Numbered from the whole stretch's first letter, positions 1,614 through 61,725 are shown. The stretch is 62,026 nt of DNA, filler included, from Catajapyx aquilonaris (GCA_000934665.2; 2 parts of 2 records of this genome joined end to end with filler, not necessarily neighbours in it), one strand, 5' to 3'. Numbers and translations are program-made. The notes: generated from the letters alone by a model not told the origin.

Positions 1614-27751
<26,138 letters not shown>

Positions 27752-36294: not shown

Positions 36295-36727
36295 CCCCCT
36301 GGAGTACCGACTATGTGCAAAGCACCATGTGTACAGCATTTTATAGAAAAGAACCGTGTAATATTGTCAATGTAATGTTGTCGATGAAGCTAATATTAGT
36401 TGAACTAATATACTATGCGAGCCATTTGGTACGATGTAGCGTGCAGGAGTTATAGACAATGACGCAGGCTAATAGACGGAAAAGAAACCCATCTAGACTG
36501 GTCAAGGTCTCTTGGAACGAGAATATCCCGAGCCGAGCCCTTCCCACGTCACTTGGCATAAAAAAAACTTCCCGGCCTTCACCCTTATCACGTCACTTTA
36601 AAAGAAAAAAACTTGGAAATTCCCGAACCGCGCCCTTCCCACGTAACGTGATCATGATATAGCTCCACAGCCTACGCATCATACTGCTGCTTCATAACAC
36701 CACACTCGGCAATTGTTTGTGTGCGCG

Positions 36728-37280
36728 ATGGGACGAACAAAAAGCACAACAGCCAATGAAGACGACAAACAAGAACAAGGTGCAACAGACAAAGGAGAGG
36801 AAGAGAACAGATAAAAATACCACCGACAAGAAGCATCGATACAGGTGAGTGAATATTACTTACATTCAAACGACCATAAACCACTATTCTGTGTGTTTCA
36901 AGAGCTGGCACCGATGCACTCAGGGAAATCCGTCGATACCAAAAATCGACGGAACTTCTGATCCGGAAACTGTCATTCAAGCGGCTTGTCCGCGAAATAA
37001 TCCAGGACATGTCCAACGCGAACCTCCGGATCCAATGCGCTGCGCTTGGAGCCCTGCAGGTATGACGAGCAACCTCGTACCTTAGCTTTGAGACTAATCA
37101 GTGTGGGTGTGTGTGTGGATGTGCTTCCAGAAAGCGGCCGCGTACTATTTGACTGGGCTGTTCGAAGACACAAACTTGAGGTGCATTCATGGTAAGCGCA
37201 CAACAATCAAGCCCAAGGACATTTCCTTGGCCCTGCGCATCCGCGGTAATTTATCTCCCATTAATCTGTATCAGTATTAA
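36728..37280 (+). pseudogene. Divergent H3.3-derived histone, copy A (3 exons: 36728-36844, 36903-37059, 37131-37280)
   Basis: MGRTK(+1 frameshift)[107 protein letters not shown] introns. Confidence 0.9.
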
Positions 37281-37329
37281 AAAGTTTTTATAACCAAATT
37301 ACTCCCAGTAAGCGAACAGCTTGACACTG

Positions 37330-37513
37330 CACTGCACAAACAGGTTGAAGCTAACAGGAAAATCCTTGGTCCAATAGTCAACACAATTGTATTTTGTGGG
37401 ACGCATGACCTGGCTATGAAGGGAAACTCAGTGACTCCGGCGTTTTCAGCGACCTGCTTGCATTCAGAGCTGAAAGTGGTGACTCTGACCTGCAAAACCA
37501 CTTACAGTCTGGG
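37330..37513 (+). pseudogene. hAT (DUF4371, ZMYM/PRKRIR-like) transposase fragment
   Basis: QVEANRKILGPIVNTIVFCG..LAMKG..SGVFSDLLAFRAESGDSDLQNHL. Confidence 0.8.
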
Positions 37514-37580
37514 ATTTATACTGTTTTTTCTCCCACAGACAGAAAGAAGATCCTGAATGAGAATGTGGAATTCAAGAAAA

Positions 37581-37790
37581 CATGTCCAGTAGCGAAACGT
37601 CTACGAGCATGCGAATACCCAGCCTACGAGATATACAAGGGGGATTGGCATGTAGTGGTAAAGAAGGGGGGGACAGATAACCTCCCTTTCATCCACATTC
37701 GTCAGTTTCCTGGGAAAAATTTGAAGCTCGCGGGGTATCAGGGGTGGGGTTTTTTATATATAAAATGCTCCCGACCATGTTAGAGGCCTT
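37581..37790 (+). pseudogene. PC4/Sub1-like gene fragment, copy 1
   Basis: YPAYEIYKGDWHVVVKKGGTDNLPFIHIRQF, then a frameshifted GGVF..KMLP; resembles PC4 IDIREY..KGISL. Confidence 0.5.
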
Positions 37791-38493
37791 GCAAGAAACT
37801 TACGATCAGATGCGATGTGCAAGGGTGGTTTTTGAATAATGAGACGAATATTGTTTCTCGATCCCTTTATTTTGATTGTAACATGCATTTGGCGCTTAAT
37901 GTCCCTTTTCTATTTGGTCTAATAAATATTCAATTGATTCTGACATGTCCTGCTTATTATTCATTCCACGAAGTAGGAGTCCAAGGCTTAACATTTGGTT
38001 ACAAACGACCATTGTTTTCATCTGGCTGCGGTCTGACTAACGGTCGCGGTATTGTTAATGTTGATGAAGCATCCCGAGATGCTGTTCTTGATGAATGCTA
38101 GGGTGGTATCAGCCCTAGATACGGCCTTATTCACGGATACGTCACACTTGATTTTTGCACTATTTCTAGTAGGGGTGGGTTCATATTTGCTGTGGAAGTT
38201 GATTAGCAATTGCAGAGCAAAGCGACACAAGCGAACCCCAAGACAGACACCGGACGCAGAGGCCATGACGACTGAGGAGGGTCAAACGATATTCCCCCAG
38301 TGTGACAGGAACACCCAGAAGGCCGGAGTGAGCGTAAAGGCCGCTTCACAAACTCGGCGTGGCTAAGGCAGGGCGTGTGGAGCGCGAAAAACTTGCGAGG
38401 GTCAAAGCACAAATGTTGCGTGCGGCGGCCGAGGGAAAGCGTGGCGCTAGCGGACTTTCTGCGTGTGAGTAGCGAGCGAAGTAGCAGGGCAAG

Positions 38494-38640
38494 ATGGCGG
38501 CCGCCATGTGTACGAAGCGAAAGCTCCTGAAGGCCGAAGAGAATGAGCGGATCATTGCTCTGGTATGCTCCAATGAGGCACTCTGGAACGTAAAGCTGAG
38601 TGCATACAAGGACATCCACCTGCAAAACTCCCTGTGGGAG
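38494..38640 (+). pseudogene. MADF (Myb/SANT) domain fragment, Harbinger ORF2-like
   Basis: ERIIALVCSNEALWNVKLSAYKDIHLQNSLWE. Confidence 0.8.
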
Positions 38641-40478
38641 GATAAAGGTGATCCACGAAGATCCGAGGGCAATTCGGCAGGGCGTTACAACTGGTCAACG
38701 TAAGCCTCCCGTTATACGAGACCGACAGCCGCCTACGACTCACATTAGAGTCAAGAGAGACGGATTCACATAAGGGACAGGTACCCAGACCCGTCTTGGA
38801 TAACAACCGGCGAGTATAACGCTTTGTTGATAATTGGAATTCCTTAACCATGTTTTGTCCCAGCGATATGGAGGTACCCTTTCCTTCCTATAGACTCTGA
38901 GCTCGCAGTTTTCTGGGGTCCTTTCCTAAAGAGGAGAAACTATGTCGCAAGTAGCATATTATAGAGGGGTATATAAATGACCTTATAGCGTTTTATCAAT
39001 GACAAATATAAGATTATTGGTTATGCAAATATTTTGTAATAAATAATATTCATAATTCCCAGTGCCACAATTGTAAGCGCGTGCGAGCAGTCAAAAACCG
39101 TGTTCTTTTGGAAATACCCTGCGTGGAGATGCAGGAAGGTATGGAGTGAACGACATGCCATGAAGAGGCTGAATAAATGTCGCTACTGGTGTTTGAAATA
39201 AAAAAGAACCACAAACGTCCGTAACTGAGAACGGGGTCTGCAGTAACCAGTCCAGCGTAATGTAATATAGCCAGGGTAGTGATACTTATAAGGTGTAGGT
39301 AACATTTAACCACCTAAATAACAACAATTGACACAGGCCGCGAGCTTGGAAATATTTATAAACTCTGGAATTCATTCGTCCAATAATGGAGTCATGATAA
39401 TTTTATGCCTCAGCCCTCAGTTGTATTGCAATTTCAAAGAACTGTAGTGCAAAGATTGTCAAGTAATTATGAAAAGTAAGCTTAATATGGTACCTCTCTT
39501 TCATGGTCAAGAACTTCAGGAATGACGTGTTCCCAATGGCTCCATCAAAGGGAGCAAAGCAAGGACTCTTGGCAATAGCCAAGGTGGAGCGGCTACATAA
39601 TGAAGAACCATGCATGCACAATCCCGATCCCTTGACCATTTCCATATCGTCACTTCAGGATCCCCTGACTGTTGAGAATTATTTGACATCCCCTGAGCTT
39701 ACCGAGACCGTTCAGGATTCTTTGACATGGCCTGAGCTTACAGACACTTTTTTTTTTTTGTAACCCTACCTCACTATAACGCTGTACCCTTGTCCAACTG
39801 TGTCACAAATACCATAGGTAAAAAATATGTATTACAAAGTGTAACAGTGAGTGGATATCCCCCTATATGAGCCCATGGCTCGAAGCACGGGGCGGATAAA
39901 TAAATAAAATAGATAAATAGTTGAAGCTGTCCCCTGTCGTGCTATAAAACGGAAAAAAAACCCAAGAAAGATACAACGAAGAAGCTGAGGACATCAGGGC
40001 AGGCATACACCAGGGACTCAGGTCATATCACACGACGTACTCTGATAAGACCGAGCGAGTGCGTCAAAAAGCCTTTTTAGTCATACGTGTGTCACAGGAA
40101 AACGTGTTCAGCGCTTACAGCAGTTACTGAAGGGGGAGGTGTCATCCAAGTCAGTGAATTCACGGATGGTGGTGTGCAGTATGAATTCAAGCTTGCCAAC
40201 AAACCAAGATGACTGTACAGGCGTGAAAATAAATGCCAAAAAAATGCAAGACATAGGCAAACTCGTGCAATACATTCAATCAGAGCACCCCTAAACCAGA
40301 TGGCTTCACGCACCAACATATCAGAGGTTTTATTACTTAGCTAGCATTCTACACAGCTCACACTGCATTGGTTCATTGCATTCGGAAATCATCTCTAAAC
40401 CATCTCTCAAGCTGGAAAGCTTCGTAAGTAACTACATAGTTTCCTGTCAACAATCTCTCTTTATTCATAGACTCTACT

Positions 40479-40817
40479 ATGGATATTTTTAATCGTCTTT
40501 TCGGTGATGAATTGGTAAACCTGTTCAACGAGAAAGTCATGTTTGGGTGGAGGTGGGAGTGTGTAGACCTTGAAATGTTGGACAATGATGAAGCAGTTGT
40601 TTATTGGTACCTGGTTCCGGATGACGTAATTGTGGGCCTATTCGATGATCAAGATTGTGGGATAGAATTTATTAACTTATTTAACGAAAAACCAGTTCAA
40701 AATTATTATACAGATTATTTTCCCGATAGAAATGGTTATTATACTTGCCAATATTCTTATATAGATAAATGCGACAGTGATGACGATGCATCATGTCGGG
40801 TATATAAACGTGGATAA
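40479..40817 (+). CDS. Orphan acidic 112-aa ORF, virus-like
   Basis: Intact ATG to TAA with an internal NLFNEK repeat; no recognisable family. Confidence 0.4.
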   Translation: MDIFNRLFGDELVNLFNEKVMFGWRWECVDLEMLDNDEAVVYWYLVPDDVIVGLFDDQDCGIEFINLFNEKPVQNYYTDYFPDRNGYYTCQYSYIDKCDSDDDASCRVYKRG

Positions 40818-41829
40818 TTAATTCCAACCATTAATTCATGAATTCCCCTCATTTCCACTTTTATATCTTCCTACCCACACCTTGCTTCCACTTAGTCTTG
40901 AGACATGGCTATACACGTTGCACTATTCGTTGGTGTTAAGCCACATAACTGTTTGAAATTACAAAAAACCGAAAAGGTGGTTAGTCTATGGAGGAATGAT
41001 TACGAGGTGTTGGAAGATCCTGGATTAATCCCGCACCAGCCATTGCACATACAGCTACTTTACGTGTGATTGTAAGGCGAAGAAAAAAAATCAATGGGAT
41101 ATTAATAAGGGTATATCTTGGTATACCCACCCCGATTGTCGTGAAGAACATGAAGATGTCATTCGTCCTGGTATGGTGAGTCTATCATCACTAGTATTGC
41201 GCGACTATTATTAAAACATTTTCTTAGTACACCAAAATGAATCTTTGCGCCAGACTCTTTCAAATGGAAAAAGAACTTTGTCAGTTGGAGGGTGGATCAC
41301 ATGACCTTCGGGAACAGGTTCCTACAATGATCCGGATGACGAAAGAGGGTTGGTAGTCGGGACGAAGACTGGTAGACCTGGTTCATCAACTACGTGCTGC
41401 TAAGGGATTGTCTGAGAATATGACGCAACATCGGGATTTATTCAAGGGCATGAAAGATATACCTTGAAAAGATGTATTGTGAAACACTCCTTTATACCTC
41501 TCCCATCTACCTCTTCACAACTTCCATCTTCTGTTCCAGTCACCAATAATGAACCTTATTTTCCCTACCCTACCGAAACTCTACTTTTGGACATATTTGA
41601 TGTGTAGACTATGTCAGTCTTATCAATAAAATAAGATAAGAAATGTTTTATTTGATATTCCTTATAGATGGAGAAGATCTGTGACAAGTTTATTGATCGC
41701 ATTAAGACTCTTCAATGGTTAAAAAAGATAAACGCACATCGATGGACTCAAGCCAGCATTCTCTTCCGAGAAAGAGAAGATAGATGGTCAATTGAATTAT
41801 GTAGCACGGAGTTCGTAATGTTTTTTCCC

Positions 41830-42762
41830 GAAATTCAGTGTGCTACGGACTGGGGTAGGTTCAAGGAACTAATCCTGGAGAGGTTTAATCCTACTCGTGG
41901 GTTCTCTGATTTGATTGGTGATGTAAAGGGGTTCAGGCAAGAAGTAGGCCAAAGCGCAAATGAGTTTGCCACGACCCTGCGTAAGTTACAGCTGGACTTA
42001 CTTTCTTGTGCTGATGCGCCGCGTGACAGGGAGACAGTGGAGTTACTGATTTTGTCTCAATTTGTTTCGGGGTTGAGTTCAGAAAAAACAAGGCACTCCA
42101 TTCAGATTTTGAAACCTAAACGGTTATCCGAGGCGCTTCGGATTGCGCTGGAATAGGAGGTGCAGGAAAAGAGTGGGTTGATAGGGTCCAAGCAGAGAAG
42201 TAGGACATTGTTGTGTAGCGAGGATGGGGAAGTGGATGTAGTAGGTCAGCTGACTGAAAAAGTAGGGATGCTCACGAAGCAACTAGAAAGGTATCAGTTG
42301 GAGGCCAACAGGAAGTGGGAAGAAGCCAAACAGGCGGTGGCGACTCCTCCTCAAGCTGGGAGTGAGGTAAAGCAAGGCGGTGTTAGACCAAAAGCTAACA
42401 GGAGTAAGCCACGCTGTTATAGGTGTAATTCGGAACAGCACTTACTGCCTCAGTGTCCGCAGATGCCAAGGAAAGCATCAGGCGCCTGTTTTAGGTGTGG
42501 GAGTATGGAGCACTTAATCAATAGGTGCCCAATGAAAATACAGGTCAGGGAGCCACCCTCGCCCTGTCCTATTTGTAGGGGGAATCATTGGAAAATTCAC
42601 TGCCCTCAGAATAAGCAGAGGGGTTATGCAATTCCGGCACCAGGTAGGCAGGTGTACTCTGGTGGGTTGCCAGGAAGTATGAGCGAAATGAGCAATGTGA
42701 CAGCCCAAAGTAGGGGGGAGAATTACTGGTACGAGTTATGTGCCTCAAATCCGTTACCATAA
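41830..42762 (+). pseudogene. LTR-retrotransposon gag fragment with three CCHC knuckles
   Basis: WGRFKELILERF..RQEVGQSANEFATTLR..QFVSGL; CYRCNSEQHLLPQC, CFRCGSMEHLINRC, CPICRGNHWKIHC; in-frame TAG at 42154. Confidence 0.9.
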
Positions 42763-43074
42763 GGGAGAAGGACCTCAGGGTAGTGGGCATTGTCCTCCTG
42801 GACATGAGTTAGCATTGGTGTCTAGACCGGGAAATGGGGAGAGCCCTCCTTTTTCCACCGGAGAATAAAGGAGAATAGGGCCAAGATACCGGGCAATCAA
42901 ACGGAAGACACGAATCAATACCCCTAAGACTCCATCACCACAAGTTTCTCCAATTTTAAGTAGGTCCAACCAGATGCCGGTGAAGGTTCCTTGGTATGTG
43001 TATGTACAACCTCCTTCTATGGTGCAGAAGCCATGTGAAAATAGGGAGCATAGGGGCGATATATCGGCTTATAG

Positions 43075-43205
43075 GATGTCCAGTGGCGAAACGTCTACGA
43101 GCATTCGAATACCCAGCCTACGAGATATACAAGGGGGATTGGCATGTAGTGGTAAAGAAGGGGGGGACAGATAACCTCCCTTTCATCCACATTCGTAAGT
43201 TTCCT
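43075..43205 (+). pseudogene. PC4-like fragment, copy 2
   Basis: Near-identical to 37581-37710. Confidence 0.5.
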
Positions 43206-43490
43206 TTAGCTGCCGCCCTGCAGAAAGACTTAAAAGAAGTCAACCAATTTCGCGCCTCGAAATGTAATGACATCGTGGCCTCATTCATCACCGAGGGATT
43301 AAGTTTCCCACTGAATCCGGATGAAGGTGGGGTGAAATTCGAGAAGGCGAACAAGATAAGTGTAAACGTTTATGATCATGATGGCAGCTTGAATGTAGAC
43401 CCAATTCGAACAACCACAGTACATGCACCGCGACATGTGGATCTCCTCTTCCTGTGTCAAGGGGAGGAGCTAGAAGAGGGTCTCACCTAA
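43206..43490 (+). pseudogene. Polinton/Maverick protein-primed polB N-terminal fragment
   Basis: GLSFPL..KFEKANKISVNVY..PIRTT..HVDLLFL. Confidence 0.75.
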
Positions 43491-43854
43491 CAACCTTGCC
43501 AGATCATTTTGGATCCACAACACAGAATGGTTGGCCTGAAGTGGAGTGAGTATTAGTCCTGACATGACTCCCCGTTGTCTCCCCCAGAGTATACTGACTT
43601 GTCTATTTTGTTCGGCCCCAAATAAAAATGCTAGATGCTAGAAACTGAGTATTGTGTCTGACTTCTGACCTCTCCCTTACTTGACCGACTCGACTTGATT
43701 CCGGCATCGTTGGATTTGCCGCCAAATTGGCGACAATCGAACAATATAATACACTAGGGGTAACACCTGACAGACCATATGTAGACATAGATGGGGAAGG
43801 TATTTTCTTCATGTATGATCCCCCCACTTACTAAAAAGCCTCGGAACAACCCTA

Positions 43855-44770
43855 AGGCTCATTATCTACAGTGGGATGGGCACCTTGTTAGGTGGAGCTA
43901 TGCAGCGAGTGTTTGTGGCCAACAACTTCAACAATGGCTGAGGCTCATCCCAAAAATTACACGTCGCCACATTGGATTAGTACCATTTAAGAAAATAAAG
44001 GCGAAGTTTGCATCTCAGGTTCTTAGCTATTCAACGGCAGCAGCATTACAAAATTATGTGGTGGGAGTTACTTCCGCCTGAGGCTAGGCATACTGCAGAT
44101 CGGCTGCAATTGGTGGACAAGTTGTTCGATACTTTTAACAGCAGTCGCAGGTGGGATGGGCTTAGCCAGCTAAGTGTACACTAACTGAGAATTCCATTCA
44201 CCTTGCATTTTGGGAGGAGACATTGGTGTCACTGAGTAATTGTAGGTTCGATGCTGTTCGACAGCCTGACTGCTTGTTGGGCTGGCAACTCTCAATACGA
44301 GCTGTAATTATGACGTGGAATGAGATACGTGGCCGTCTTGACACTCAGTATCTCTGCACACGACAGCTCAATCAAGATAGCTTGGAGAGAACATTCGGAG
44401 TGATCAGGGGGGGTGAAATGGTTGCAATGATCATCACCCAACTCCTTCACAATTTTTTTTTCTGCATTAAGACAAGTGTTCACCAAGTCCTTTCTTAAAC
44501 CCTCTGACATGGGTAATAGTGAAACAGACGAACGAGATATTCCAGCTGACCTTAGTTCTGTCATGCAGAGTAAGGAAGCCACAGCTCAGGATGTAGGGTC
44601 AAGGGATGGGCGAAATGTAACAATGTATCCTAAGATCTCTATTGATGATTTTCATGTCCCTGCACAAAATGCGTTATACCATGTCGCTGGATATATTTGC
44701 AAGAAATTGTTGAGGGCTCATGATTGCTTGTTGTGTCAGCACATCATGCTTAAAAAAGATTTAAGATAGA
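43855..44770 (+). pseudogene. P-element/THAP9-like transposase fragment
   Basis: LRLIPKITRRHI..FKKIKAKFASQVLS; DKLFDTFNS; GWQLSI..YLCTRQLNQDSLERTFGVIR; YHVAGYICKKL..CLLC. Confidence 0.9.
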
Positions 44771-46667
44771 CGGATTGGGGTTAATACCGTCTGGACGCCG
44801 TTGGGTCCTTGTGACCTTCATCTCTAATGGCGAGGTTGTGAAGGATATGAATCACACTATTGGACGCATTCTTTAGGATCCCCCAAAGTATGTGTGGGCA
44901 CAATTTAAAATAATTGACCAATGTTTAACCTTCCTTCTTGGATTTGTTGAAGTCACTCTTCATGAGGAGATAGTGCTCCCCGCACAGTAAATGGAAGGCG
45001 AAATCTACTACTCAACATCTACAAGAATCATCACGACCTAATGGGGATTCAGTCACTACCAGAAACCAACAGCAAGAGGGTCCTTCTTCTGAAGAAACAT
45101 CGGTATTGCGCTCTCCAGAAGCGATGGAAGAGTTGACGGCATTTAATGGATATACTAGTTTACACTTTAGCAGTCCACATAAATCCTTACGTAGGTTGTC
45201 TCCCTTAGAAAATTGCATGGAAGTGCTGTATATTCATCGATGTATCAGTTATTACTGTTCTGGGTTTCCTTATTAATGTCAGAAAATTTTGTAATACTTT
45301 GAGAACTGCTTTATATTCAGCATCTTAGGCGGGCTATACTATTACAGGCAAAATAAATCCAGACATTAACTGGATAAACTGTGAATCAAAAGTGTCGTTG
45401 TCCAATATTAATTGTCAGGATACAGGATACAATGGAGCCAGGGACGAACTTCGCTGGAGAAGAGAAACAATTGATGGTGTTTATGAGGGCGACATTGGCA
45501 CTGCGCAAGGACATCGTGCTAAGTGATCTGCCAGCATATTTCTTGGAAGTAAAATGGGTGTGTATGCAATGAACTGAAATAATGGAATCACTAGCACCAC
45601 CATGCTAATTTTCCTTCTTATCTGTCAGACGCCCACAAATATGGCTGTAAAACCACCCTGCTTCTTTCCTGCTATTTTGATAACTTTTTAATTGCAACAT
45701 TCATCTGATATATTTTTATGTGACGACCAACTTATTCTTCCAGCTAACTATTGAGGCTGAACTATGATTTGGAAGTACCATGTCTAGTCTAGTTAAAAAA
45801 AAAAAAACTGACATGTGAACTGCAGAAGCTGGTCAGAAGAACGTCCTGTCCTCCAGGGCTGCCCAAAACGGGCACGCGGGGACGTGTACACTATTGATCA
45901 AGAACGGGCCTACGGATGGGCACTGGAACAGAGTAAGGAATATGCAGAGAAGGCTTCTTCGCCACACATGACATCCCCTTTGTTGCAGTCGACCACGTGA
46001 TCTAACCCTTTCCATAAGCAAATACCTGCGAAGGGGATCACAGTAGGTCCAGTGTAGCATATGGACTGCTGACACCGAACAACGACAGGATGGAAGCCCT
46101 GCCAAATGTAGTTTCCCATGGCCATGGAGACCAGTATATGGAGACAGATGTCTTGCGAGTTGCAATATCATCAGAATGAAGTTGCCTTTTGTTCGACAGC
46201 GGAATGGAACCAGTCAGTCCTTCCCTCACCTCCGACCAGGCACCATGACAGAATTCCGACCCCTAGCACCTTTCCTCGAGGACTATACCCATCCTTCGGG
46301 CCCCTGGATTGCGTACATGTTCCCTCCAGCAGGGCCAGCGCCCAATAAGACAGATCAGATGTACTTGGGAATATACCCAGTATCACACGGGTCGGTGCTG
46401 CTATCCGGGAGACCCATCAGGGCAGGGTGTCCAGGCGGTGAGGATCAATGGCAACCGGGTAGCGGAATGGCGCTATTTCCCACAGAGGACTCGACTGGTG
46501 GTGCAGGCATGGAATCCGGAGGCGGCCGCCGCTGCTGCAGTCGTGCCCAATCAGGACTTCTGGGAGTATCTGGGGTTAGAAGCCGAACGCACCCAGGCCG
46601 GATTTTACGGCGTACAACATGAACCATCACCGGAGCGGCACCCGGACTGAGTAAGCCAGAGTCTTTT

Positions 46668-47202
46668 TGTAACATTTTGGTAGTCTTGCGAAACATTTTT
46701 ACATAACACGTTGTGCAACTTTGATATTGTTTTTATACGTCATCTTATGATGCAAAGGTACCCTTCAATTTGACCGTAGCGTCGTTAAATTCGAAATGCG
46801 TCATATGATGTAGAGCAACACATGACGTATTTCAGCACATTAAAACTAATCGAGTTAGAATCAGTAGTGTCAGGTGTCCCAATGTACGTCAATAGGCATC
46901 TGCGTGCGTCATTGAACACCGTCATAACGTAGTTAACACGTGGAGGTTAAGTATAAAAGACCAAGTTTGGGCAGTCTTAGGGCAGAGAAGGGCCAGAGCA
47001 CACAAGCTATATACTCAGCACTCGACGACATTCTCCCTCTACGGACATCAGAATACAGTAAGTGGTTCACCTTTCATTCACAGTGTAATTGGATGGGAGT
47101 TGTAATCCTTTTTGAGCCAATGTGTTAAAGAAACTTCTTTCAATAAATACAGTTTGTTTCTCTTACTGGTGCACAAGTTCTATTTTCTCACTTTGCTCCA
47201 CA
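46668..47202 (+). mobile_element. LTR-like segment
   Basis: TGTAACA start, TATAAAA near 46952, AATAAA near 47142, possible CA end; no TSD. Confidence 0.35.
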
Positions 47203-47264
47203 GAAAACTATAAGTCGACTGTTCCTACCTCTAAATAAATAATGTCGATGACAGTGGCGCAGCG

Positions 47265-47335
47265 GTAGGATAAAGAAGGGGGGCAAGGATAACCTCCCTT
47301 TCATACACATCCGAAAGTATGCTGAGATTGGCAGT
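47265..47335 (+). pseudogene. PC4-like fragment, copy 3
   Basis: IKKGGKDNLPFIHIRKY. Confidence 0.5.
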
Positions 47336-49859
47336 GTGCAGAAAGATCCCATTGGGGATTGGGACCTAGACCGGCGCAAACGGTGCATGTAAGAGAGCCC
47401 GCCTCGGGGCCTGTTCATTGGTCATTTGGACCCCTCCCCTAGCATCATTCGTCCCATCCCCCGGCAGCCTCCCGCCTTTGCCGCCATGACTACGTTCCTT
47501 TATGAGTCTATGAGCGTCACGGACAGAGCCTTTTACATCGGCCACCACCCCTTTAAATCCAGCGTCCCCCGACCTCGTGTACTTGATCATGTAGAGGACT
47601 TAAGTGACGTCAGGGTGCACTTCTGTGCCACTCTGGGCGCCAGATTTAATTTTGACCGGCTGGCGGGAGGTGCCATGGGGCCAGCAGACATTCAGGCGGT
47701 CCCAATTATTAACCAGGGACTGACTAGTGTGGGTACTAATATTATAGACGTATATAAGGGGGCTTACCCGGCATAGCCATCTGCAGCCCCCGGCTCCATC
47801 AACATCTAATCACCGAAAAGTGACAACATCATAAACAAACAAGAAGAGCCAAACAAACCTGGATAAACCCGAAAACCGAAACTATGATCTCTTGCTCCTG
47901 GAAGTCAAGTGCTGTCTTGGATTCGCCAGACAGCACTCCCCTAAAATGTTTTTCCCGTCGGCGTGGGAAACAACTGAACGTTGTGAGGCGTGTCTGGCGC
48001 ATACTATCGTGCTACCATTTGCAGGAAGAATCTATTATCAAGCCCTGTCGAGTAGCGATGAGATTGATTCCGAAGCTAGCACAGAGCTGGCTTTCGATCC
48101 GACGCCTACCGGAGATGACTCCGGCTGTTTGTCCCCCACCCCCTCTGAGGAATCGGACGAATCAGAAGATTGAACCTATCTCCGGGAATCCCTGACACGT
48201 GTCATGCCGCCTACGGCATAACAAGAAAATTAAACATACTTTAATTACGATATTAATTAGCGTCCGACATACACTTGAATATCATAAATTATGTCTGTTT
48301 ATTAAAACCAGGGAAAGGCAGCAAGAAATCTGTAGACTTCCTGGCGCCGGAAAGCCATTCAAAAGAGCCATTCGAGTCCGAGCGCGGAGATAGGTACAAG
48401 AAGTACACCGCATCAATGTAACAAGTCCGTCTCTAGGATGGAGGGGTTATGTCGATATTACAGGAAAAACCTCGAAAAGGGTACTCACGTGGTGTAAACC
48501 CCACCCAGAAAACGGACACTACAAAAGCAGGTCCGGTTTGTAGAATCAAGCAGTAAGTAAGTAAGCAGTAAGTAAGTAAGCAGTAAGCAGAGAGTCTTCC
48601 AGAGAATCGTTGCCGAGACTGTACAGATTCAACTCTGACAGGTAAGCCAGCCATGTGGCAAAATTTCCAGTTGCAATTATTTTTCTTCTCATGCAACCAC
48701 AGATTGAGAAGGTGTATTATGCATGAGTAAGGTGTACAGAGAATGTAAGTGTCACAGTAGTTATTCACTTATGTATATTGTAGTGAAGAGGTTAGAACTT
48801 TAGAATCTATTGTTGAGGTTAAAATATATACAGCATGTCAAAGAGAAGGATAAGTCGAATTGTAAACTATTCATGAAAGTGTATTGTGTGTGTAATAGCG
48901 AGCGGTAACGCTCTGATAAAACAAAGAGCCTGAATTGGCTAAATTAAACATGTTATTTGAAACCATTCCCTGAATACATTTTATTCCCGCTGATATCCGA
49001 CACATATATTTCTACTTAACTTATATTCGAACCCCGTACCTTCCATAATACCATAATATATTTCCATGCCCAGATGTTTGATTAGGATTGATGATTTGAT
49101 GTGGCTGTGGTGTAAAATTATACTGCAAATTCAGCAGATGTCATATCCCACTAGTCATTCCAGAACTGATTTACTAATCAGAATCGAAGTCATTGTCACC
49201 GTCAAGAAGACTTCAACGACCTGATCACTCGGTCAGCTTCAGCTGATTTGAGGTACTTGCACAGTTTCAGAACATCTGTCAATTTTGCAGACTTGACTGG
49301 AATGAATTACTTGTACAATGCTTCCGTAGGAAATGAGAGACATGTTGCTTTCCTCTGTCCAACATATGACTGGCACAGAGCACCAGACATAGTTTGTGAT
49401 ACCCTGACCTGAAACTTGTGCACCTTTGAGTATTCCAGAATCTTGCATTTGAAATCAGAAGCAGTGACGGACCGCGTAAAAATCGGCGCAAAATGCCCTT
49501 TGAAATCATGACCATTCATGATAATGACATCAAACTTTGCCCCAACCAACATTTTGGACAAATGACTATCGCCATGTACCAGGCCACTGAGAATGAAAGC
49601 AACCATACTCCCAAAAAAACAAGTTATTTGTGATCATTTTTTTTGTTGAGTTATGCACGTTTTAATTCTGGGTGCTTCGATTGTAGTCGTCTTGTTTCAT
49701 CCGCCCTTAACTTCCCACAGTTTGCCTGCTGTTACCATGGAGCCTCCACGTGTCTCTCCACGTACCAGCTCGTCCAAACGCGACAAGGTAAAATAATCCC
49801 ATCACCTGCAAGCACGGAGTCTCTCTGGCATGGTTAAGACTATAGGTAATGTATCGTCA

Positions 49860-49985
49860 GGATGTTACAAGCATTTACTGCTGCACCTTAGCATTGCAAC
49901 CGTCACATGTCCAAATTGCGGGCAGAGTTATAAAGACTTTAGTTCAAGGTTGGGGCATATTCAGCGCATCCTTCGCAAATTAAAG
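49860..49985 (+). pseudogene. C2H2 zinc-finger fragment
   Basis: YKHLLLH..VTCPNCGQSYKDFSSRLGHIQR. Confidence 0.5.
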
Positions 49986-51689
49986 AATGCTTGGAACGGA
50001 TGGGATTAGGCTCACTGATGAATACCGCCATGTTGGGTAGGTTACTCAAAACACGGAACCAATTGTAAAATATGGACCTCCTCTGTCAGAGTTACGGCGA
50101 CCCGACCATAAAGGCCCCGCGCCAATGTATCTCATCATCCACAATTATTCAAAGGCTAATCAAGAACAAGAATTTACATTTACTGTCCTCACAAAAGGAA
50201 CTCCAATCAAACGATTAATAGAATTTACGTTAGAGAAATTACATTTATATTTTAAAATGAAGCTGAGCCAAATAAGATCTGAAAAGCTGATAGTTCACAA
50301 CAGTTTAATTTTAATGTACATTTAATGCAAGTTTTCGGTAAATTTATGCAAATTTTAAGATTTTCTAAAAGCAAAAAACAAGTATGGAAGGGAAAATGGG
50401 GGGAGGGGGAAGCAATGCCCTGAATGCTCAAGGACCCAACTCTACTGCAGCACTCCCATACGCATCCCCCAGGCCCTAGCCCAGTGTCCCGCCCCGAAGC
50501 TAGGCATTTATGTCCGACAGCACTGCGTCCGCCCGTAGACAAAAGGTGGACCTCCTGTGAAGGATCCACAATTAATACATGCCAGTTTTGTCCAAGTCCC
50601 TGCATGGGAATGGTCAGAACAGCAGGAAGCGGATCAGTTAAATTGTTGGGGATAAGGAACCAGTGTGGATAAATTACACAGCATACGATTCACAAGCTAC
50701 ATCGGAATTAATTACAATGCTTAAAGCATCCCCTCAAGGTATAGAAGCCATACGCGTCAAAGATCGAAGCCGTATAAGGGGAAATCCGAGAGATGTCCTC
50801 TTGTAGGGTGTGCTTGCTCCCTCAGTAGATACATACATAGGCCATCCCACATAACCAGTCACCTGAACGTGAATTGTATGTATTGTCCGGTCTGCTCCAG
50901 ATCACTGTACAGTATCATTGCATGGGTAAACCATATGTTGTATTCACATAAAGAAAAAAATGAAGGTAATACTGAACAGAACAGGATATGCACATATGCT
51001 ACGGTATGATGCAACCCGAGTGAATTAATCATGTGAGAGGAATTTGGACGTGATGACTATTTTTTTTAAACTACTTCTATTTTTAGCACACTATATGGTA
51101 ACTATTGCATTGTTTTTATTATTCTTCAATTTAAAATGAAGATTTAATGTTGTATCAATCTCTTATCAATGTAAGTGTCTTGTATTTCGATGTGCAGTTG
51201 AAAATCTTGTCTCGTGTGAGTGGATATTGTCATGGTTGATATTGCGAGCTTGGACTTCTTGGAGTAATTATTTATGATAATATTAATAGTATGTATAATA
51301 CAGGCATAATAAGAGTACAATGCGATCGCAGCTCTATATTCACAGGCTCACCGGCGCCAATAAAGCCATTAACTTGCTTCTGACACTGCAAACCATTGCC
51401 TGCGCTTACAGCAGCAAAACGTGTCAGCGTAATCAATGTCATAGTTAGAAGTGTCTTATATAGATTCCACAGAATGCTTAGCAAGAGTCAGGTTATCCCT
51501 ACAAAATACTATAAAAGGACCACAAAGGGTTCAGCAGAAGACCGAGATGGGCAGCCCACCAGCCAGAGATGTAAGAAATAATTTTCAACCGCATTAAGTG
51601 ACTTTGGAGGGGAACCCTTTAATTAGTCGTAACCTCCGACACTTTAATGTAAGCTGCAACATGACGCAGCGACGTCCGCATATGGAGGG

Positions 51690-52080
51690 GCCATGTAAAA
51701 TATTCGTGTATAATAAACAAGCATTCATTGACTCTGTCATTGACATCCTGATGTCTCCCTGCCCCACGCATATTACCTTCCAACTTATATTCGGACCCGT
51801 ACCTGCTTAGGTCCGACACTTCCACCCCATTGACATTACACGCAAACTTATCGAAATGGAACAGAACGAACGAGTTTTCAGGTGTAATCTTATCCTCATC
51901 TGAATACTTGGAATTGTCGTTGCCCTTCACGATATCACTCTTAAAATGGACTGGCTCAGGTAAAAGTAACCATCCATTTTCGTCATTCTATGAATTACGT
52001 CACTTCTATGGGAATTGATGTCACCCGCTTCGGGTGCAAATATGTAGTCCAGCATTTTGAAGTAGTCCATTCCGGTCATG
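51690..52080 (-). pseudogene. Polinton-type major capsid protein N-terminal fragment (frameshifted)
   Basis: YFYLSQSILRV/DIVKGNDNSKYSDEDKITPENSFVLFHFDKFACNVNGVEV resembles my recollection of Polinton capsid N-termini. Confidence 0.55.
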
Positions 52081-52167
52081 GCGTTCAGGACGGATTGGCC
52101 TTGTGTGTCACCATGTTTGATTGCTCAAATGTGTAAGCGAAAAGTAATAGGGTCACTGGGATCATGT

Positions 52168-52512
52168 CGATACCAAAAGTCGACGGAACTCCCAATCAAG
52201 AAACTACCATTCCAACGACTAGTACGAGAGATCCTGCAGGATTTGGAGACTAACCTCCGGGTCCAATGTGGGGCACTTGGAGCCCTGCAGGTATGACAAG
52301 CAACCAATCACCTTAGCTTTGAGACTAATATGATATGTAACGTGTGCATTTGTATGTATGTATGACGCTTCCAGGAAGCGACGGAGGCGTACCTAGTTGG
52401 TATCTTTGAAGATACCTACCTCTGTTGTATCCATGCAAAAAGCACAACAATCATGCCCAAGGACATATCCTTGGCTCTCCGCATCCGCGGTGACTTATGT
52501 CTGAGTGTCTGA
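52168..52512 (+). pseudogene. H3.3-derived histone, copy C (5'-truncated; intron 52291-52374)
   Basis: [81 protein letters not shown]. Confidence 0.9.
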
Positions 52513-52539
52513 TGGAGAAGGAGGGTGACTGTCAAAAAC

Positions 52540-52895
52540 ATGAGTCTCCCTGGTCTCACCTACGATACGGCTTTGCGCATGACTGGTATCTCCATCTCCC
52601 TCTTCACAGACGTCGAAATGTATAAATTTGTTGAGAAGGGTGTCAGAGAAGGATGCGCTTACGTGGGATTGAGGCATTCAGTCGTCAACAACGAGTACAT
52701 AACTGACCCTAACGCCCCCTCCACCTACACTGTCTATTATGGCATGAATAACCTTTATGGATACAGCATGTCCTGGCATGTGCCCATGGGAGGGGTCCAT
52801 CACTCTGGAACCGATCCCCCAGCTCCTGACACATTATATTGGAGACGCCAGAAAACGACGAGTATGGGTACATCCTGGAAGTTGACCTGAAATAT
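52540..52895 (+). pseudogene. Polinton/Maverick polB polymerase-domain fragment
   Basis: SLPGLTYDTALRMTG..LFTDVEMYKFVEKGVREG..NNEY..YYGMNNLYGYSMS..P.GG, then frameshifted GYILEVDLKY. Confidence 0.9.
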
Positions 52896-52909
52896 GCTCG
52901 AGAACTCCA

Positions 52910-53097
52910 TGATTCCCAATAGGAGTACAAGTGACAACCTCTTTATACTAAATGCCCTGGTACAGCACAGGCTGCGGAGGAAGAGTGGGAAAATGTACGC
53001 GATGTTCGTGGATCTTAAATCCACATTCGACAAAGTGGATCGCGTGAAACTTATGACAAAACTGTGGAACATAGGAGAAAAGGGGAAAGTGTGGAGA
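52910..53097 (+). pseudogene. Non-LTR (LINE) reverse transcriptase fragment
   Basis: PNRSTSDNLFIL..MYAMFVDLKSTFDKVDR..LMTKL. Confidence 0.88.
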
Positions 53098-53179
53098 CAC
53101 TCACTCACTTCACCTCAGCAGTTACCCGAGTACAAAGACGCATGGCATGTGCAGATGACATTCCATCCTCAAAGAGGCC

Positions 53180-54098
53180 CATTTACCCTGCGGAGGAAGA
53201 CGAGATGGGGCTGCAAGTAAATGTGCCGTTGTATTGGCCAAAAAATCTCGACGTGTCCAGCTCGAGATACGGCCTCGAGAATTGCAACAACCGAGAGACG
53301 TCTTGTGGCTGCAAATCACATATCAATTCAACTTTGTTGTTGTAAAATGCCTGGATACTGGGAAGTGTAGCATCGGGCTTCATGAAGAGGTCAAAGGGAG
53401 ACCGTCTGGGGCTCTCGCAGTGGTCACCCTGGGATGGTGCCGCTCAGTCGTTCTCACATCAGCAGATGGGCGAAAATTACAATTGGAACATTTGCGAATT
53501 AAAACAGGATTTGGCCACTGCATACCAGTTAAACCACCCACCCCCCAGTAAATGGTTCATCGGGGTTCCCCAAGATGGCTTTGAAAGCAAAAAGCACAAA
53601 TGTCAGACACTCGTTGGTCAGCACGTGCTGATGCTAGTGAAGCCCACGTATATGGATACAACTGTATTCAAAATACCCTCAGAGATATTGAGTGAGTGAC
53701 TTGGAGCAAACACCTGAAGCAAAATATGAAGCTCAGTCATTGGCAGACAAAATGGATTGTCTTGAAACTGCTCTGGAGGCGAAGGTCTGGAACTTAATTC
53801 TGGTGCAGTTCAACAACCAAGTAAGCTTTTCAAGGAGTTGAAGTTGACCTGAAGAAAGTGGTTGATCTCACTGATTCTCTAGAAAAAGCTTCTGGAGTCA
53901 CTGAGGGATAGACATGACTAGTTGGAAATAGATGCCAGTAACTTTTGTGGCAACACAGACCACAAAGCAACTACAGGCAGGTCAAGAAAGAGAAATCAAT
54001 GCTTTGATATGAATCCCACATCAGTCCCAGGAAATTGCCCTGTCTTCCAGAGAAACATTCAGATGGGGAACATTTTCATTTTAGATAAGTTGTCAGCG
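53180..54098 (+). repeat. Composite block duplicated at 55228-56133; includes a hAT transposase fragment (about 53695-54098)
   Basis: Near-identical sequence from catttaccctgc to tgtcagcggc; hAT-like EAQSLADKM..WNLILVQFN. Confidence 0.9.
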
Positions 54099-54741
54099 GC
54101 GGTTCCCATTGTCCTTTTTGACCGTCCCGTTATTTATTTTGTGCGTGCAGATGGAACCAGTGATGAAGAACATCCCCGTACGATTGTATTTGATTTCGAA
54201 GGGTGGGTTGTATCTCCGGTGGGAGGTGTGTGACCTTCCTGAATGACTCTCTCGTCACTGGCCCATTCCATCACCCTTTATTTTTGAGTTGGTTTTGCCT
54301 CCCCCATTTACCAATGTGAGATGCGCCGTTGCATTGGCGAGGTAGACCTATTTTTCCACCGCTGTATATACCGTTAGCTGCAAAGGTCTGTTAACCATCA
54401 TGCAACCTGTTTAATACGTCAATCCTGCTTCACCTTCTTTAGTAACCATAATGCATTGTTCTCACCCTACTATTTAACCAACCGCCCACGTATGCTCCAG
54501 GCCAGTTCCCCGGGAGCATATCCCGGGGGCTGGTCGTTACTCCCGACCTATCACTCTTCACCCATTTCACCTATCCCTTCCTGACTTTTGTTTGTAACGC
54601 ACGTTTCAAGGCAGAATAAACCAAAGTACAATGGACCCACTAGTTTTGATATGTTTCACCTGCTTCGGTGACAACTTCACAGTCTATACGCATCATATTG
54701 CTGCTTCATAACACCACACTCGACAACTGTATGTGTGTGCG

Positions 54742-55231
54742 ATGGGCGCACAAAAGCACAGCAGCCATTGAAGAGGAGAAAGAATAAGAACAAGGTGCAA
54801 CAGAAACAGAACCGGGCGCAACACCCAAAGGAGAGAAAGAGGACAGACAAAAAGAGTACTGACAAGAAGCAGCGATATAGGTAAGTGAATATTACTTACA
54901 TTCAAACTACCATAAAACACTACTCCTTGTATTTCAAGACCTGGCACTGTTGCACTCACAGTCAGAGAAATCCGTAGATACCAAAAGTCGACGGAGCTTC
55001 AGATCCGGAAACTAGCCTTCCAGCAGCGGCTTGTCCGTGAGATAATGCAAAACATTTCCAGCGTAAACCTCCGCATTCAATGCTCTGGGCTGGGAGCCCT
55101 GCAGGTATGACGAGTAACCTTGCACCTTAGCTTTGAGACTAATCAGATGTATGCGTGTGGGTGCGCGCTTCCAGGAAGCGGCCGAGTCCTATTTGGTTGG
55201 GCTCTTTGAGGATACAAACTTGTGCTGCATT
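54742..55231 (+). pseudogene. H3.3-derived histone, copy B (exons 54742-54880, 54939-55104, 55175-55231; 3'-truncated)
   Basis: MG(-1 frameshift)[96 protein letters not shown]. Confidence 0.9.
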
Positions 55232-56235
55232 TACCCTGCTGAGGAGGAAGAGATGGGGCTGCAAGTAAATGTGCCGTTGTATTGGCCAAAAAATCTCGAC
55301 GTGTCCAGCTCGAGATATGGCCTCGAGAATTGCAACAACCGAGAGACGTCTTGTGGCTGCAAATCACATATCAATTCAACTTTGTTGTTGTAAAATGCCT
55401 GGATACTGGGAAGTGTAGCATCGGACTTCATGAAGAGGTCAAAGGGAGACCGTCTGGGGCTCTCGCAGTGGTCACCCTGGGATGGTGCCGCTCAGTCGTT
55501 CTCACATCAGCAGATGGGCGAAAATTACAATTGGAACATTTGCGAATTAAAACAGGATTTGGCCACTGCATACTAGTTAAACCACCCACCCCCCAGTAAA
55601 TGGTTCATCGGGGTTCCCCAAGATGGCTTTGAAAGCAAAAAGACCAAATGTCAGACACTCGTTGGTCAGCACGTGCTGATGCTAGTGAAGCTCTCGTAGC
55701 CTATATGGATACAACTGTATTCAAAATGCCCTCATAGACATTGAGAGTGAGTGACTTGGAGCAAACACCTGAAGCAAGATATGAAGATCAGACATTGTCA
55801 GACAAAATGGATTGTCTTGAAACTGCTCTGGGGGCGAAGGTCTGGAACTTAATTCTGTTGCAGTTCAACAACCAAGTCAAGATTTTCAAGGAGTTGAAGT
55901 TGACCTGAAGAAAGTGGTTGATCTCATTGATTCTCTAGAAATGTTTCTGGAGTCACTTAGGGATAGATATGACTATAGATGCCAGTAACTTTTGTGGCAA
56001 CACAGACCCCAGAGCAACTACAGGCAGGTCAAGAAAGAGAAATCAATGCTTTGATATGAATCCCACATCAGTCTGTCTTTCAGAGAGAAATTCAGATGGG
56101 GAACATTTTCATCTTAGATAATTTGTCAGCGGCTTTAAAAGAACGAAGGGTAGCATACCAATCAGTGTATGACAGGTTCAATGTCATAGTCAACTTATCC
56201 AGTCTACCTCATGCAGAGATGAGGACTGAAGCTGA
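55228..56235 (+). repeat. Second copy of the composite block, continuing further into the hAT transposase
   Basis: ILDNLSAALKERRVAYQSVYDRF. Confidence 0.85.
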
Positions 56236-56479
56236 GGCAGCTGCAGACCCCCGGACAATGCACATTAGATGTCCAAAAAGGTCTGCTAGGAATGTACATT
56301 ATCGCATTTGAATGAACTGAACACCTCGCTGCAAGGGAAGAATAAAACTGCCGGAGCTTTTCGAGGTTGTGAAGAATTTTGCAGCTCCACTCGTCGTATG
56401 GCACGTAGACATATCTGATGGACGCCTGCATGTCCCTATCCTCACCAGTGTGACTTCAAGCGACGAATTAATCGACTAC

Positions 56480-56825
56480 GGACCTTTCGCAGAATTCTTG
56501 TCGCACTTGGAGAAGGAGTTCCGCAATAGGTTTACAGACTCTTTTGTCAGTTTTTCTTTTTTTCACAATGCATAACCCCTTCTCTGCAGAAGAGCACTCA
56601 CAGTCTGCGTGGAGTCCTTGACCATGGCAGGTTGCAACTGGAGACCTGCAAGCACTACTTCAAAACGGAAATCAAGTCGGACCGGACTTTTGATGCAAGT
56701 TCGACAACCAACGGTTTCCGAACCTTCGAAAGGTGGGAATTCAGGTGTACTCCATGTATGGGTCAACATATATTGTTCCGAGAGTGAGTTTTCAAAGACG
56801 AACTTCATAAAAAATAAGTACGCTC
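56480..56825 (+). pseudogene. hAT C-terminal dimerisation-domain fragment (SPIN/GTF2IRD2-like)
   Basis: FLSHLEKEFRNRF..PNLRK..SMYGSTYCSESEFSKTNFIKNKY (frameshifted). Confidence 0.75.
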
Positions 56826-57344
56826 TGAAGCAATCTGTTGCAAGAACACCTGGAAGCCTACCTGCAAATTGCGCAACTTCGTACATTCCAGAATTTGCGT
56901 AGTTGACTCTCCTAATGGGTAGATGCGAGAAGTAGCACGAATGGGACTCCGACATATGGAGCAGGAGGAGAGGGCTGGTGCACATCGCCCAAAGGTTCAT
57001 CAAGACACCCTGCAATTGGTTGCGTCCTCATCCTTGACCTCATGTGAAAGGATACAGTTGGTGTAATCTTAGACTATAATATCAAAGGGAGATGGTAAAC
57101 CCTCCTGCCAATGATGATCTTCAGTATTTTATCTGGGGTTGGGATCATTATTGCATCAGTCACTTGCAAGCTTTCTGAGGTCAACCCCAACAGAAGAGGA
57201 AGCCGCCACTTGCCAAAGCGACGCCGATGAAGAAGATGGCGCGTACATGAAATTTGGACAAACCAGTAAGCTTTCCTTGATTCGTGGGAAAATGGTCCCT
57301 GGATTTACACTTGTTTTTACACATAAAGAATATTCTCAACGAGG

Positions 57345-57565
57345 ATGTCTTTTGAGGTGTGCAAAGCGGCAGCGCACCTGAAGGCTGCGGATTACCCGGC
57401 CTATGAGATTTACCAGGGTGGCTGGCACTTGCAGGTGAAGAAATGAGGGGAGATGCTGTTTGTACACATCAGGATGTATCAGACACAAAACCTGAAGGAA
57501 AAAGGGGGAAAGGGTGGTGTATTTTTCTACAAAATGCTCCCAGCGATTATAGAAGCCCTTCATCC
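57345..57565 (+). pseudogene. PC4-like fragment, copy 4 (diverged)
   Basis: [56 protein letters not shown]. Confidence 0.5.
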
Positions 57566-57629
57566 AGCATTGCTCATGCTAGACTTTCAACACTTCCAAT
57601 CATCCTACCCCATTCAGCCAAACTGCATA

Positions 57630-57788
57630 GTCCAGTCTGCAGCCGTTGGAGCAATCCAGGAGGCAGCAGAGTCATACCTGGTTGCCATATTTGAAGACAT
57701 TAACATGTGCAGCAGCATCCATGCCAAGAGGAAAACCATCACCCCCAAAAATATGATGTTGGCTTGCCGCATTCGTGGTGACACCTGA
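57630..57788 (+). pseudogene. H3.3-like C-terminal fragment, copy D (no intron at Q|E)
   Basis: [51 protein letters not shown]. Confidence 0.88.
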
Positions 57789-60200: not shown

Positions 60201-61725
60201 CAGGGTTGTGAACCGAACCGAACCCTTGCTCCGTGAACCCGATAACATCGAACCCGCTCTGGAGCAGTAGAGTCGGATTCCGGAGCGAGAGTCGGAACGG
60301 GGACGGGTTCAAGCCGGTTCCGGAGTTGAGTGGAGCCAAGGTCGGAGCGAGTCCGGAGCGAGCGCCGGAACGGGGTTCAGGTTCAAGCCAGTTCAGGGGA
60401 AGAGTGGAGCGAAGGTCAGAGCTGGTTCGGAGCGAACGGCTCCGGAGTTGAACCCGGCGTGGGTTCTGAGCGGTTCAAAGCTTGGTTAGGTACAACATAC
60501 CAACCTAACAGAAGGAAAGGCAGTAAAACCGATGGATTTACTCCAGAGTATGCATCATGTTTTCAAGGTGGGAGAATGATATTTCCAAGCACCCGCGATA
60601 CAGGGTGTACCGCAAATGTCACATTTTCATGCCATGTGCATTTTTGTATGCCACAATATGTCATACGCTCTTTTTAAATATTGTTATTTTTTGAAATATT
60701 TTTTAAATATTTTTTTAACGTCACCCCATGATAGGGCCATAGGCCCTTTAGGGGAGTGGAATACCACCATTTTTCCTGCAATTTTCTGCTTTTTCTTCTA
60801 ACTCCGGTGCAAGGATGAAAGGACATGGGGTAAGGATAGGGATGTTGTCATACGCATTTTTGAATGCCTCAATATCCCATACCCATTTTTTGGATGTCAC
60901 ATTCTCATGTCAAATGCATTTTTTGCTTGTTACAATAATATGATGTTGTAACATACAAAAAATGCGTCAGACATGAAAATGTGACATACAAAAATGCGTA
61001 TGACAAAATCCCTATCCTTACCCCATGTCCTTTCCTTGCACTGGAGTTAGAAGAAAAAGCAGAAAATTGCAGGAAAAATTGTGGTATTCCACTCCCCTAT
61101 AAGGGCCTATGGCCCTATCACAGGGTAACGAAACAAAAAAAAAAATCATTTTTAAAAAAATAAAAAATTGAAAAAGTGCGTATGACATATTGTAGCATAC
61201 AAAAATGCGTGTGACATGACAATGTGACATCCAAAAAATGGGTATGAGATATAGTGGCATACAAAAATGCACATGACATGAAAATGTGACATTTGCGGTT
61301 CACCCTGTATCGCGGGTGCTTGGAAATGTCATTCTCCCACCATGAAAACATGATGCATACTCTGGAGTAAATCCATCGGTTTTACTGCCTTTCCTTCTGT
61401 TAGGTTGGTATGTTGTACCTAACCAAGCTTTGAACCGCTCTGAACCCACTCCGGATCACGCTCCTGAACCGGGTTCAACTCCGGAGCCGTTCGCTCCGAA
61501 CCAGCTCCGACCTTTGCTCCCCTCTTCCCCTGAACCGGCTTGAACCTGAACCCCGTTCCGGCGCTTGCTCCGGACTCGCTCCGACCTTGGCTCCACTCAA
61601 CTCCGGAACCGGCTTGAACCCGTCCCCGTTCCGACGCTCGCTCCGGACTCCGACCCTACTGCTCCGGAGCGGGTTCGATGCTATCTGGTTCACGGAGCAA
61701 GGGTTCGGTTTGGTTCACAACCCTG
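60201..61725. mobile_element. 1.5-kb palindromic (foldback) hAT-type non-autonomous element
   Basis: CAGGGTTGTGAACC..GGTTCACAACCCTG termini; 8-bp TSD caggat(a/c)a; arms mirror to a centre near 60940. Confidence 0.88.

Follow-up and report, generated by a model that had tools for sequence, protein, structure and literature searches.

Remains of a probable local cluster of H3.3-derived histone genes in Catajapyx aquilonaris

We analysed a stretch of 62,026 nucleotides from Catajapyx aquilonaris (GCA_000934665.2; two parts of two records joined end to end with filler, hereafter the window), which contains four gene copies resembling histone H3. All four lie on the plus strand, head to tail within 21 kb, and are named here after the positions 36728, 52168, 54742 and 57630. 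They are probably the remains of a small local cluster of host genes for a lineage-specific H3 variant derived from H3.3, in which a fold close to that of H3.3 is joined to a lysine-rich tail of a different kind. Every copy in the window is disabled by lesions that are recent relative to the divergence between copies, and that divergence is not neutral decay. Taxon-restricted variants derived from H3.3 are already known; replacement of the whole tail on an H3.3-like fold is unusual outside centromeric H3s and a few viral ones. If an intact member of the family exists, it would be a natural H3 unable to bear methyl marks at K9 or K27, and therefore useful for testing the role of those marks; the window holds only the wreck of such a family, and its present value is that of a lead.

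The four copies and their kinship with H3.3

By six-frame reading, by DNA alignment of the four, by Pfam and by tblastn alike, H3-like copies are found at the positions given in a preliminary description made from the sequence alone. PF00125 was matched by all six H3-like pieces tested (E 2e-14 to 4e-9, above Pfam's cut-off). A tblastn search of the window with an H3.3 sequence found no credible H3 piece besides the four copies, and probing the window with fused proteins carrying H1, H2A, H2B and H4 gave matches of H3 type only.

Copy 36728 (36728..37280, plus strand) reads as a full three-exon, H3.3-like gene, with PF00125 matches on exons 2 and 3. Its exons (36728-36844, 36903-37059 and 37131-37280) are separated by two introns, 36845-36902 (58 nt) and 37060-37130 (71 nt), both GT..AG; the first splits the final R codon of RYR behind its second base, and the second follows LQ. 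An ATTAAA signal, whose use is putative, overlaps the stop codon. Upstream, 36663..36727 on the plus strand is 89% identical to 54675-54741 and is probably the core promoter or 5' untranslated region (UTR), to judge from the sequence. Copy 54742, together with its conserved 5' flank, occupies 54675..55227 (plus strand; PF00125, sequence reading and alignment) and follows the same plan, with exons at 54742-54880, at 54939-55104 and from 55175, and introns at 54881-54938 (58 nt) and 55105-55174 (about 70 nt); its exon 3 is cut at about 55227, after some 18 codons. Copy 52168 (52150..52512, plus strand) is 5'-truncated inside exon 2 and keeps intron 2 (52291-52374), whose read-through meets stop codons, and a complete exon 3 ending in a stop codon (52375-52512), with PF00125 on both pieces. 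These intron placements are as the preliminary description had them. In copy 57630 (57625..57788, plus strand; PF00125 E 2e-12), the most divergent of the four, the last 13 codons of exon 2 are fused to a complete exon 3 and stop, with no intron at LQ|E, a point absent from the preliminary description.

Against an H3.3 sequence from a database protein, fold identity is 71% in copy 36728, 77% in copy 54742, 75% in copy 52168 and 63% in copy 57630; by tblastn, exons 2 and 3 of copy 36728 are 75% and 70% identical to H3.3, exon 2 of copy 54742 is 70% identical and copy 57630 is 66% identical. When the PDB was searched with exon 2 of copy 36728, H3.3C and H3.3 came first, and the best 60 sequences for that exon, as for exon 3 of copy 52168, were all H3.x, with E-values down to 2.5e-17 and 1.4e-16. 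G90 is kept in 4/4 copies and A87 in 2/4, while I89 is kept in none (L, L, L and V). Residues 86-90 had been described as AALG, GALG or AAVG and likened to the AAIG of H3.3 rather than canonical SAVM; CAALG, CGALG and SAAVG were indeed read, but copy 54742 departs from this description with CSGLG.

Copies 36728, 54742 and 52168 carry GT..AG introns in the coding region, which fits an H3.3-type replacement gene; to our knowledge, animal replication-dependent H3 genes have no introns there. We take the positions of these introns, inside the codon for R42 and after Q93, to be those of H3.3. A literature search did not find H3.3 intron positions, the available text of PMC6560044 giving intron lengths only. 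At the gathering score, Rfam returned no family in the whole 62 kb, so the window has no histone 3' stem-loop, and nothing relevant appeared at E up to 10 around copy 36728.

In animals H3.3 hardly varies, and here the copies part from it: besides their fold identity of 63-77%, they have 15 derived residues common to two or more copies and a further 48 private fold substitutions. D81N, S86C, I89L and A111C occur in all three intron-bearing copies, which are all that cover those sites in the residue comparison, and V117T, Q125S and R128L occur in both copies that cover theirs. The 15 common residues point to descent from one already diverged ancestor; together with G90 in every copy and the lack of a 3' stem-loop, they bear out the proposal that the copies form one family from an intron-bearing, H3.3-like gene. 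The C-terminus is extended or altered. Copies 36728 and 54742, and only these, have an extra residue in loop 1 together with F84I, as reported, whereas copy 52168 has F84V and a loop 1 without the insertion.

The tail departs furthest. It is 38 and 46 residues long, against 42 in H3.3, and 26-29% identical to that of H3.3. It is rich in lysine and keeps the R-T-K motif at positions 2-4, and its consensus, MGRTKAQQP(M/L)K..NKNKVQQ..KERKRTDK..TDKK(H/Q)RYR, stands as it was first written; the ARKS-type contexts of K9 and K27, the context of K36, and S31 could not be aligned in it. An intact protein would be expected to pair with H4 and form nucleosomes, given a fold 71-77% identical to that of H3.3; since G90 is kept, its entry into chromatin would probably follow the H3.3 chaperone route. 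Nucleosomes containing it should be unable to bear K9 or K27 methyl marks.

The history we envisage begins with an intron-bearing, H3.3-type host gene that would have given rise to a lineage-specific, replication-independent H3 variant. The ancestor of the present copies already carried the new lysine-rich tail and the fold substitutions D81N, S86C, I89L, A111C and others. The placement of the four, on one strand and inside 21 kb, suggests local duplication, which would have built a small head-to-tail cluster of host genes; the paralogues then diverged under purifying selection on the protein, tail included, and were disabled recently.

Selection on the copies and their loss

Differences between the copies concentrate at third codon positions. 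The counts at first, second and third positions are 10/12/32 for copies 36728 and 54742, 23/13/41 for copies 36728 and 52168, and 16/6/31, 12/10/30 and 17/13/32 for three further pairs, an excess of about three-fold in 5/5 pairs (chi-square p 0.0001 to 0.008, and below 0.001 in the first three pairs). The Nei-Gojobori ratio of nonsynonymous to synonymous divergence (dN/dS) between copies 36728 and 54742 is 0.20 overall and 0.09 in the tail alone; it is 0.18 between copies 36728 and 52168, 0.04 between 54742 and 52168, and 0.11 between 52168 and 57630; in the other pairs synonymous distances are saturated. The two full copies, 36728 and 54742, differ by coding indels of 3, 21, 6 and 3 nt, plus 2 nt from the two start-proximal frameshifts, so that four of the five are in frame. 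Not one of 391 codons in the histone frame is a stop, which bounds mean neutral drift at about 0.055 substitutions per site, and conservation is far higher in the fold than in the tail. The third-position bias, low dN/dS, in-frame indels and lack of stops together indicate that, through most of their divergence, the paralogues were evolving as protein-coding genes in tail and fold alike, and that the disabling lesions came late.

The two full copies bear different frameshifts, as had been noticed. Copy 36728 has an A5 run at 36738-36742 where the histone frame needs A4, and the extra A puts the ATG off the histone frame, where it opens a 29-codon out-of-frame open reading frame (ORF). Copy 54742 is one base short after ATGGG and has also lost most of exon 3 to a foreign block (55228..56133, plus strand) that carries a reverse-transcriptase tail. 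Copies 52168 and 57630 are disabled by the loss of their 5' parts. A fifth copy, seen outside the window in a DNA sequencing run (X1), matches exon 3 of copy 36728 at 87%, with a likeness that ends 19 nt past the stop; its coding part is broken by a one-base gap. The family appears to be dead or dying in the C. aquilonaris genome.

Other origins and points against a host cluster

From the transposon surroundings, the preliminary description had proposed a mobile or viral donor or, alternatively, a selfish, multicopy germline histone family under silencing; neither is supported by our results. On the first proposal, a mobile element or endogenised virus would carry an intron-bearing H3 unit of about 650 bp as cargo, or copy it; selection would act on active master copies, and each insertion would be dead on arrival or soon after. 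Such an origin would account for 5/5 broken copies that diverged under purifying selection like working genes, and it would mean a parasite-encoded histone whose tail, immune to K9/K27 silencing marks, was selected in the masters while dead copies were shed. Two copies have lost their 5' parts but not their 3' ends, one of them (57630) being also without its intron, and the copies resemble one another only in the gene itself, the 65 bp before it and about 19 nt after it. A precedent exists in the H3 of the Manila clam xenomavirus, which we set beside the present copies by its published description: the available text gives the viral fold as about 77% identical to host H3, describes a long, lysine-rich and highly divergent tail, and regards single viral H3s as recent captures (PMC9145170). 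One lead in favour is a polB-like ORF (52513..52887, plus strand) that abuts the 3' end of copy 52168. This ORF, resembling one for a protein-primed DNA polymerase B, scored 0.97 in an Atlas feature search, which uses a language model, with PF03175 on 28% of the best cluster, and had no match in Pfam; the fragment is probably from a Maverick/Polinton-type element. It is, however, 5'-truncated itself and lies beside one copy only, and the flanks, word depth, viral database and neighbouring ORFs lend the proposal no support. Four 5' and four 3' flanks compared at word size 7 have no sequence in common apart from the 65 bp just before the ATG, and no terminal repeats were seen in them, though no dedicated repeat search was run. 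Word depth is single-copy on each copy contig (about 29-40), with one extra copy at a likeness of at least 85% in run X1, and it is to local duplication that the position of four of about five copies points. The six H3 loci found in IMG/VR, all from giant viruses, are 65-73% identical, against 75% for H3.3, and the tail is unmatched there. Among 197 ORFs of at least 62 amino acids searched against Pfam, there was no capsid, packaging ATPase or element integrase adjacent to a copy; a capsid match to IHHNV, a shrimp parvovirus (53125-53322, minus strand; E 0.007, 15.9 bits against a cut-off of 25), is at chance level among 132 ORFs. Unlike the xenomavirus H3, moreover, the present copies are chromosomal, with a TTC21B-like gene in the window and no viral genes around, and have spliceosomal introns, which are unusual in captured genes. 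We give a mobile or viral donor a slim chance.

There is also a small chance that copy 36728 still works, either from the in-frame ATG at 36756, which would leave a tail nine residues shorter, or because the extra A is a sequencing error or polymorphism; the family would then not be extinct. Beyond the A5 shift this copy has 136 open codons, GT-AG at both introns, a stop codon and the ATTAAA signal, and both start-proximal frameshifts fall in homopolymer runs. Against this, the upstream ATG, which opens the out-of-frame ORF, has a purine at -3 and G at +4, and the ATG at 36756 is not conserved, being TTG in copy 54742. The copy also has the most private residue changes (16), and what we take to be transposable-element sequence begins 19 nt past its stop, leaving almost no 3' UTR. 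Contigs of run X1 show 0 differences from the window, but X1 is possibly the window's own source and so not independent. That the copies are ordinary H3.3 duplicates in neutral decay, their tail being mutational noise, is very improbable. All are disabled and lie in repeat-rich DNA, and to this extent the preliminary description was right to foresee that there might be no intact copy; the neutral divergence it coupled with this is contradicted by the three-fold third-position excess in all five pairs, by the dN/dS of 0.09 in the tail of the two full copies, by the in-frame indels, the 15 common derived residues and the 391 codons free of stops, and by a fold much better conserved than the tail. 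Descent from the host centromeric histone, CenH3 (CENP-A), is scarcely credible. The copies share with CenH3 a replaced, divergent tail, the replacement of F84 and, in two of the three copies covering loop 1, a loop one residue longer, but copy 52168 has no such insertion, a fold 71-77% identical to that of H3.3 resembles H3 far too closely, helix 2 hardly departs from its H3.3 form, and none of the best 60 PDB sequences for exon 2 or exon 3 is named CENP-A.

Several observations nevertheless weigh against a host gene cluster. Non-coding sequence is better kept than synonymous sites: in the introns and 5' flank of copies 36728 and 54742, 26/193 sites differ (13.5%), against 32/105 third positions (30%; Fisher p 0.0007), and in intron 2 of copies 36728 and 52168, 14/71 sites differ (20%), against 41/86 third positions (48%; p 0.0004). 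Such a pattern needs either constrained tiny introns or a process that our analysis cannot name. CpG decay was rejected as the cause of the third-position excess, as 17 of the 23 transitions at third positions fall outside CpG. Every one of the five copies seen is defective, four in the window and a fifth that looks frameshifted, yet they diverged under selection, and this combination also fits shedding by an active mobile lineage. The polB-like fragment lies directly after copy 52168. No intact member of the family was found in the window or in run X1, and the sequencing runs listed as carrying the sequence include no RNA run; a 245-bp contig from a second sample is unspliced through intron 1 and is thus DNA or unspliced sequence. 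Copy 57630 lacks the intron expected of the family and, considered as a processed retrocopy, has lost its intron and its 5' end, with no A-run within 400 bp downstream. The H3 used for comparison is not the host's own, the host H3.3, H3 and CenH3 lying outside the comparison. No relative of the tail was found among longer proteins (word search), 1.84 billion representative proteins (profile search), IMG/VR or JGI metagenomes, but this absence is weak evidence because the host's own proteome seems absent from the databases searched. Exon 3 of copy 52168 met 49 ordinary H3 genes in metagenomes, at no more than 79% identity and no nearer than H3.3. A word search of longer proteins with exon 2 returned only fused or duplicated canonical H3 models, at no more than 75% identity, and is uninformative because single-domain relatives could not show up in it.

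We class the family with young, lineage-specific variants derived from H3.3. The H3mm series of mouse, H3.X and H3.Y of primates and the H3 variants of Oikopleura reportedly depart from H3.3 at only a few positions and still have a tail that can be recognised as that of H3. In the present copies, by contrast, the whole tail is replaced and introns are kept. The available text of the papers presents all three groups as young, taxon-restricted, H3.3-type derivatives, some of them pseudogene-like (PMC4574566, PMC2935562, PMC3156773). General literature searches, supplements excluded, found no description of a variant like the one discussed here.

Introns and surroundings of the cluster

The small introns have conserved features of their own. 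The three copies with an intron 2 share within it a 20-nt block without a single difference (37079..37098, 52310-52329 and 55124-55143, plus strand). The block ends in CTAAT, a motif resembling a branch site; it has three exact matches, where 0.01 would be expected by chance, and none further at up to three mismatches. In intron 1, the 5' splice site forms an 8-bp hairpin with sequence 11 nt further downstream (36845-36863 and 54881-54899); the two full copies both retain it (z -2.4 and -2.8), with a G-U to A-U exchange as the sole change. The partner stretch presumably resembles the 5' end of U1 small nuclear RNA. From sequence alone, the hairpin may occlude the splice site, and one might guess that splicing is constrained and perhaps regulated. 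The introns were also considered as mirtrons or known RNAs, an idea that was rejected: they have no Rfam match, and intron 2 folds no better than shuffled sequence.

Between 31000 and 58000, all gene or transposon fragments recognised by Pfam lie on the plus strand: YqaJ, the C-terminus of a Ty3-type integrase, a kinase piece, a gag zinc knuckle, a P-element/THAP9-like GTP-binding domain, reverse transcriptase and the four H3 copies. The interval also has a positive AT skew, of about 0.1, and such a one-strand graveyard could be a source locus for small RNAs. The foreign block in copy 54742 has a 93% identical counterpart at 53180-54100 (self-blast), and an RVT_1 match at 52891-53220 (E 1.8e-5) falls under Pfam's cut-off. 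A short repeat family has four members, at 37512-37793, 43076-43205, 47271-47327 and 57301-57562, and two of them share 97.7% identity across 130 bp. Copy 36728 is followed, after about 230 bp, by one of the four, and that at 57301-57562 ends about 60 bp before copy 57630. Two tentative identifications were dropped: 42984-43487 was not borne out as the N-terminal part of a polB gene (Atlas score 0.76), and a hAT-like nature of 37300-37560 and 55.7-56.6 kb found no support in Pfam.

In the first half of the window, exons of a TTC21B (IFT139)-like gene extend over 8088-27434 on the plus strand. Its best named relatives, at 63-68% identity, belong to malacostracan crustaceans, those of vertebrates being near 60%; another comparison gave 72% to human TTC21B. 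One large inverted repeat lies inside this gene (21890-22315 and 22554-22978, 87% identical over 430 bp) and another beyond the histone copies (60201-61230 and 60616-61725, 82% over 1.1 kb); both are probably transposon termini or hairpin elements.

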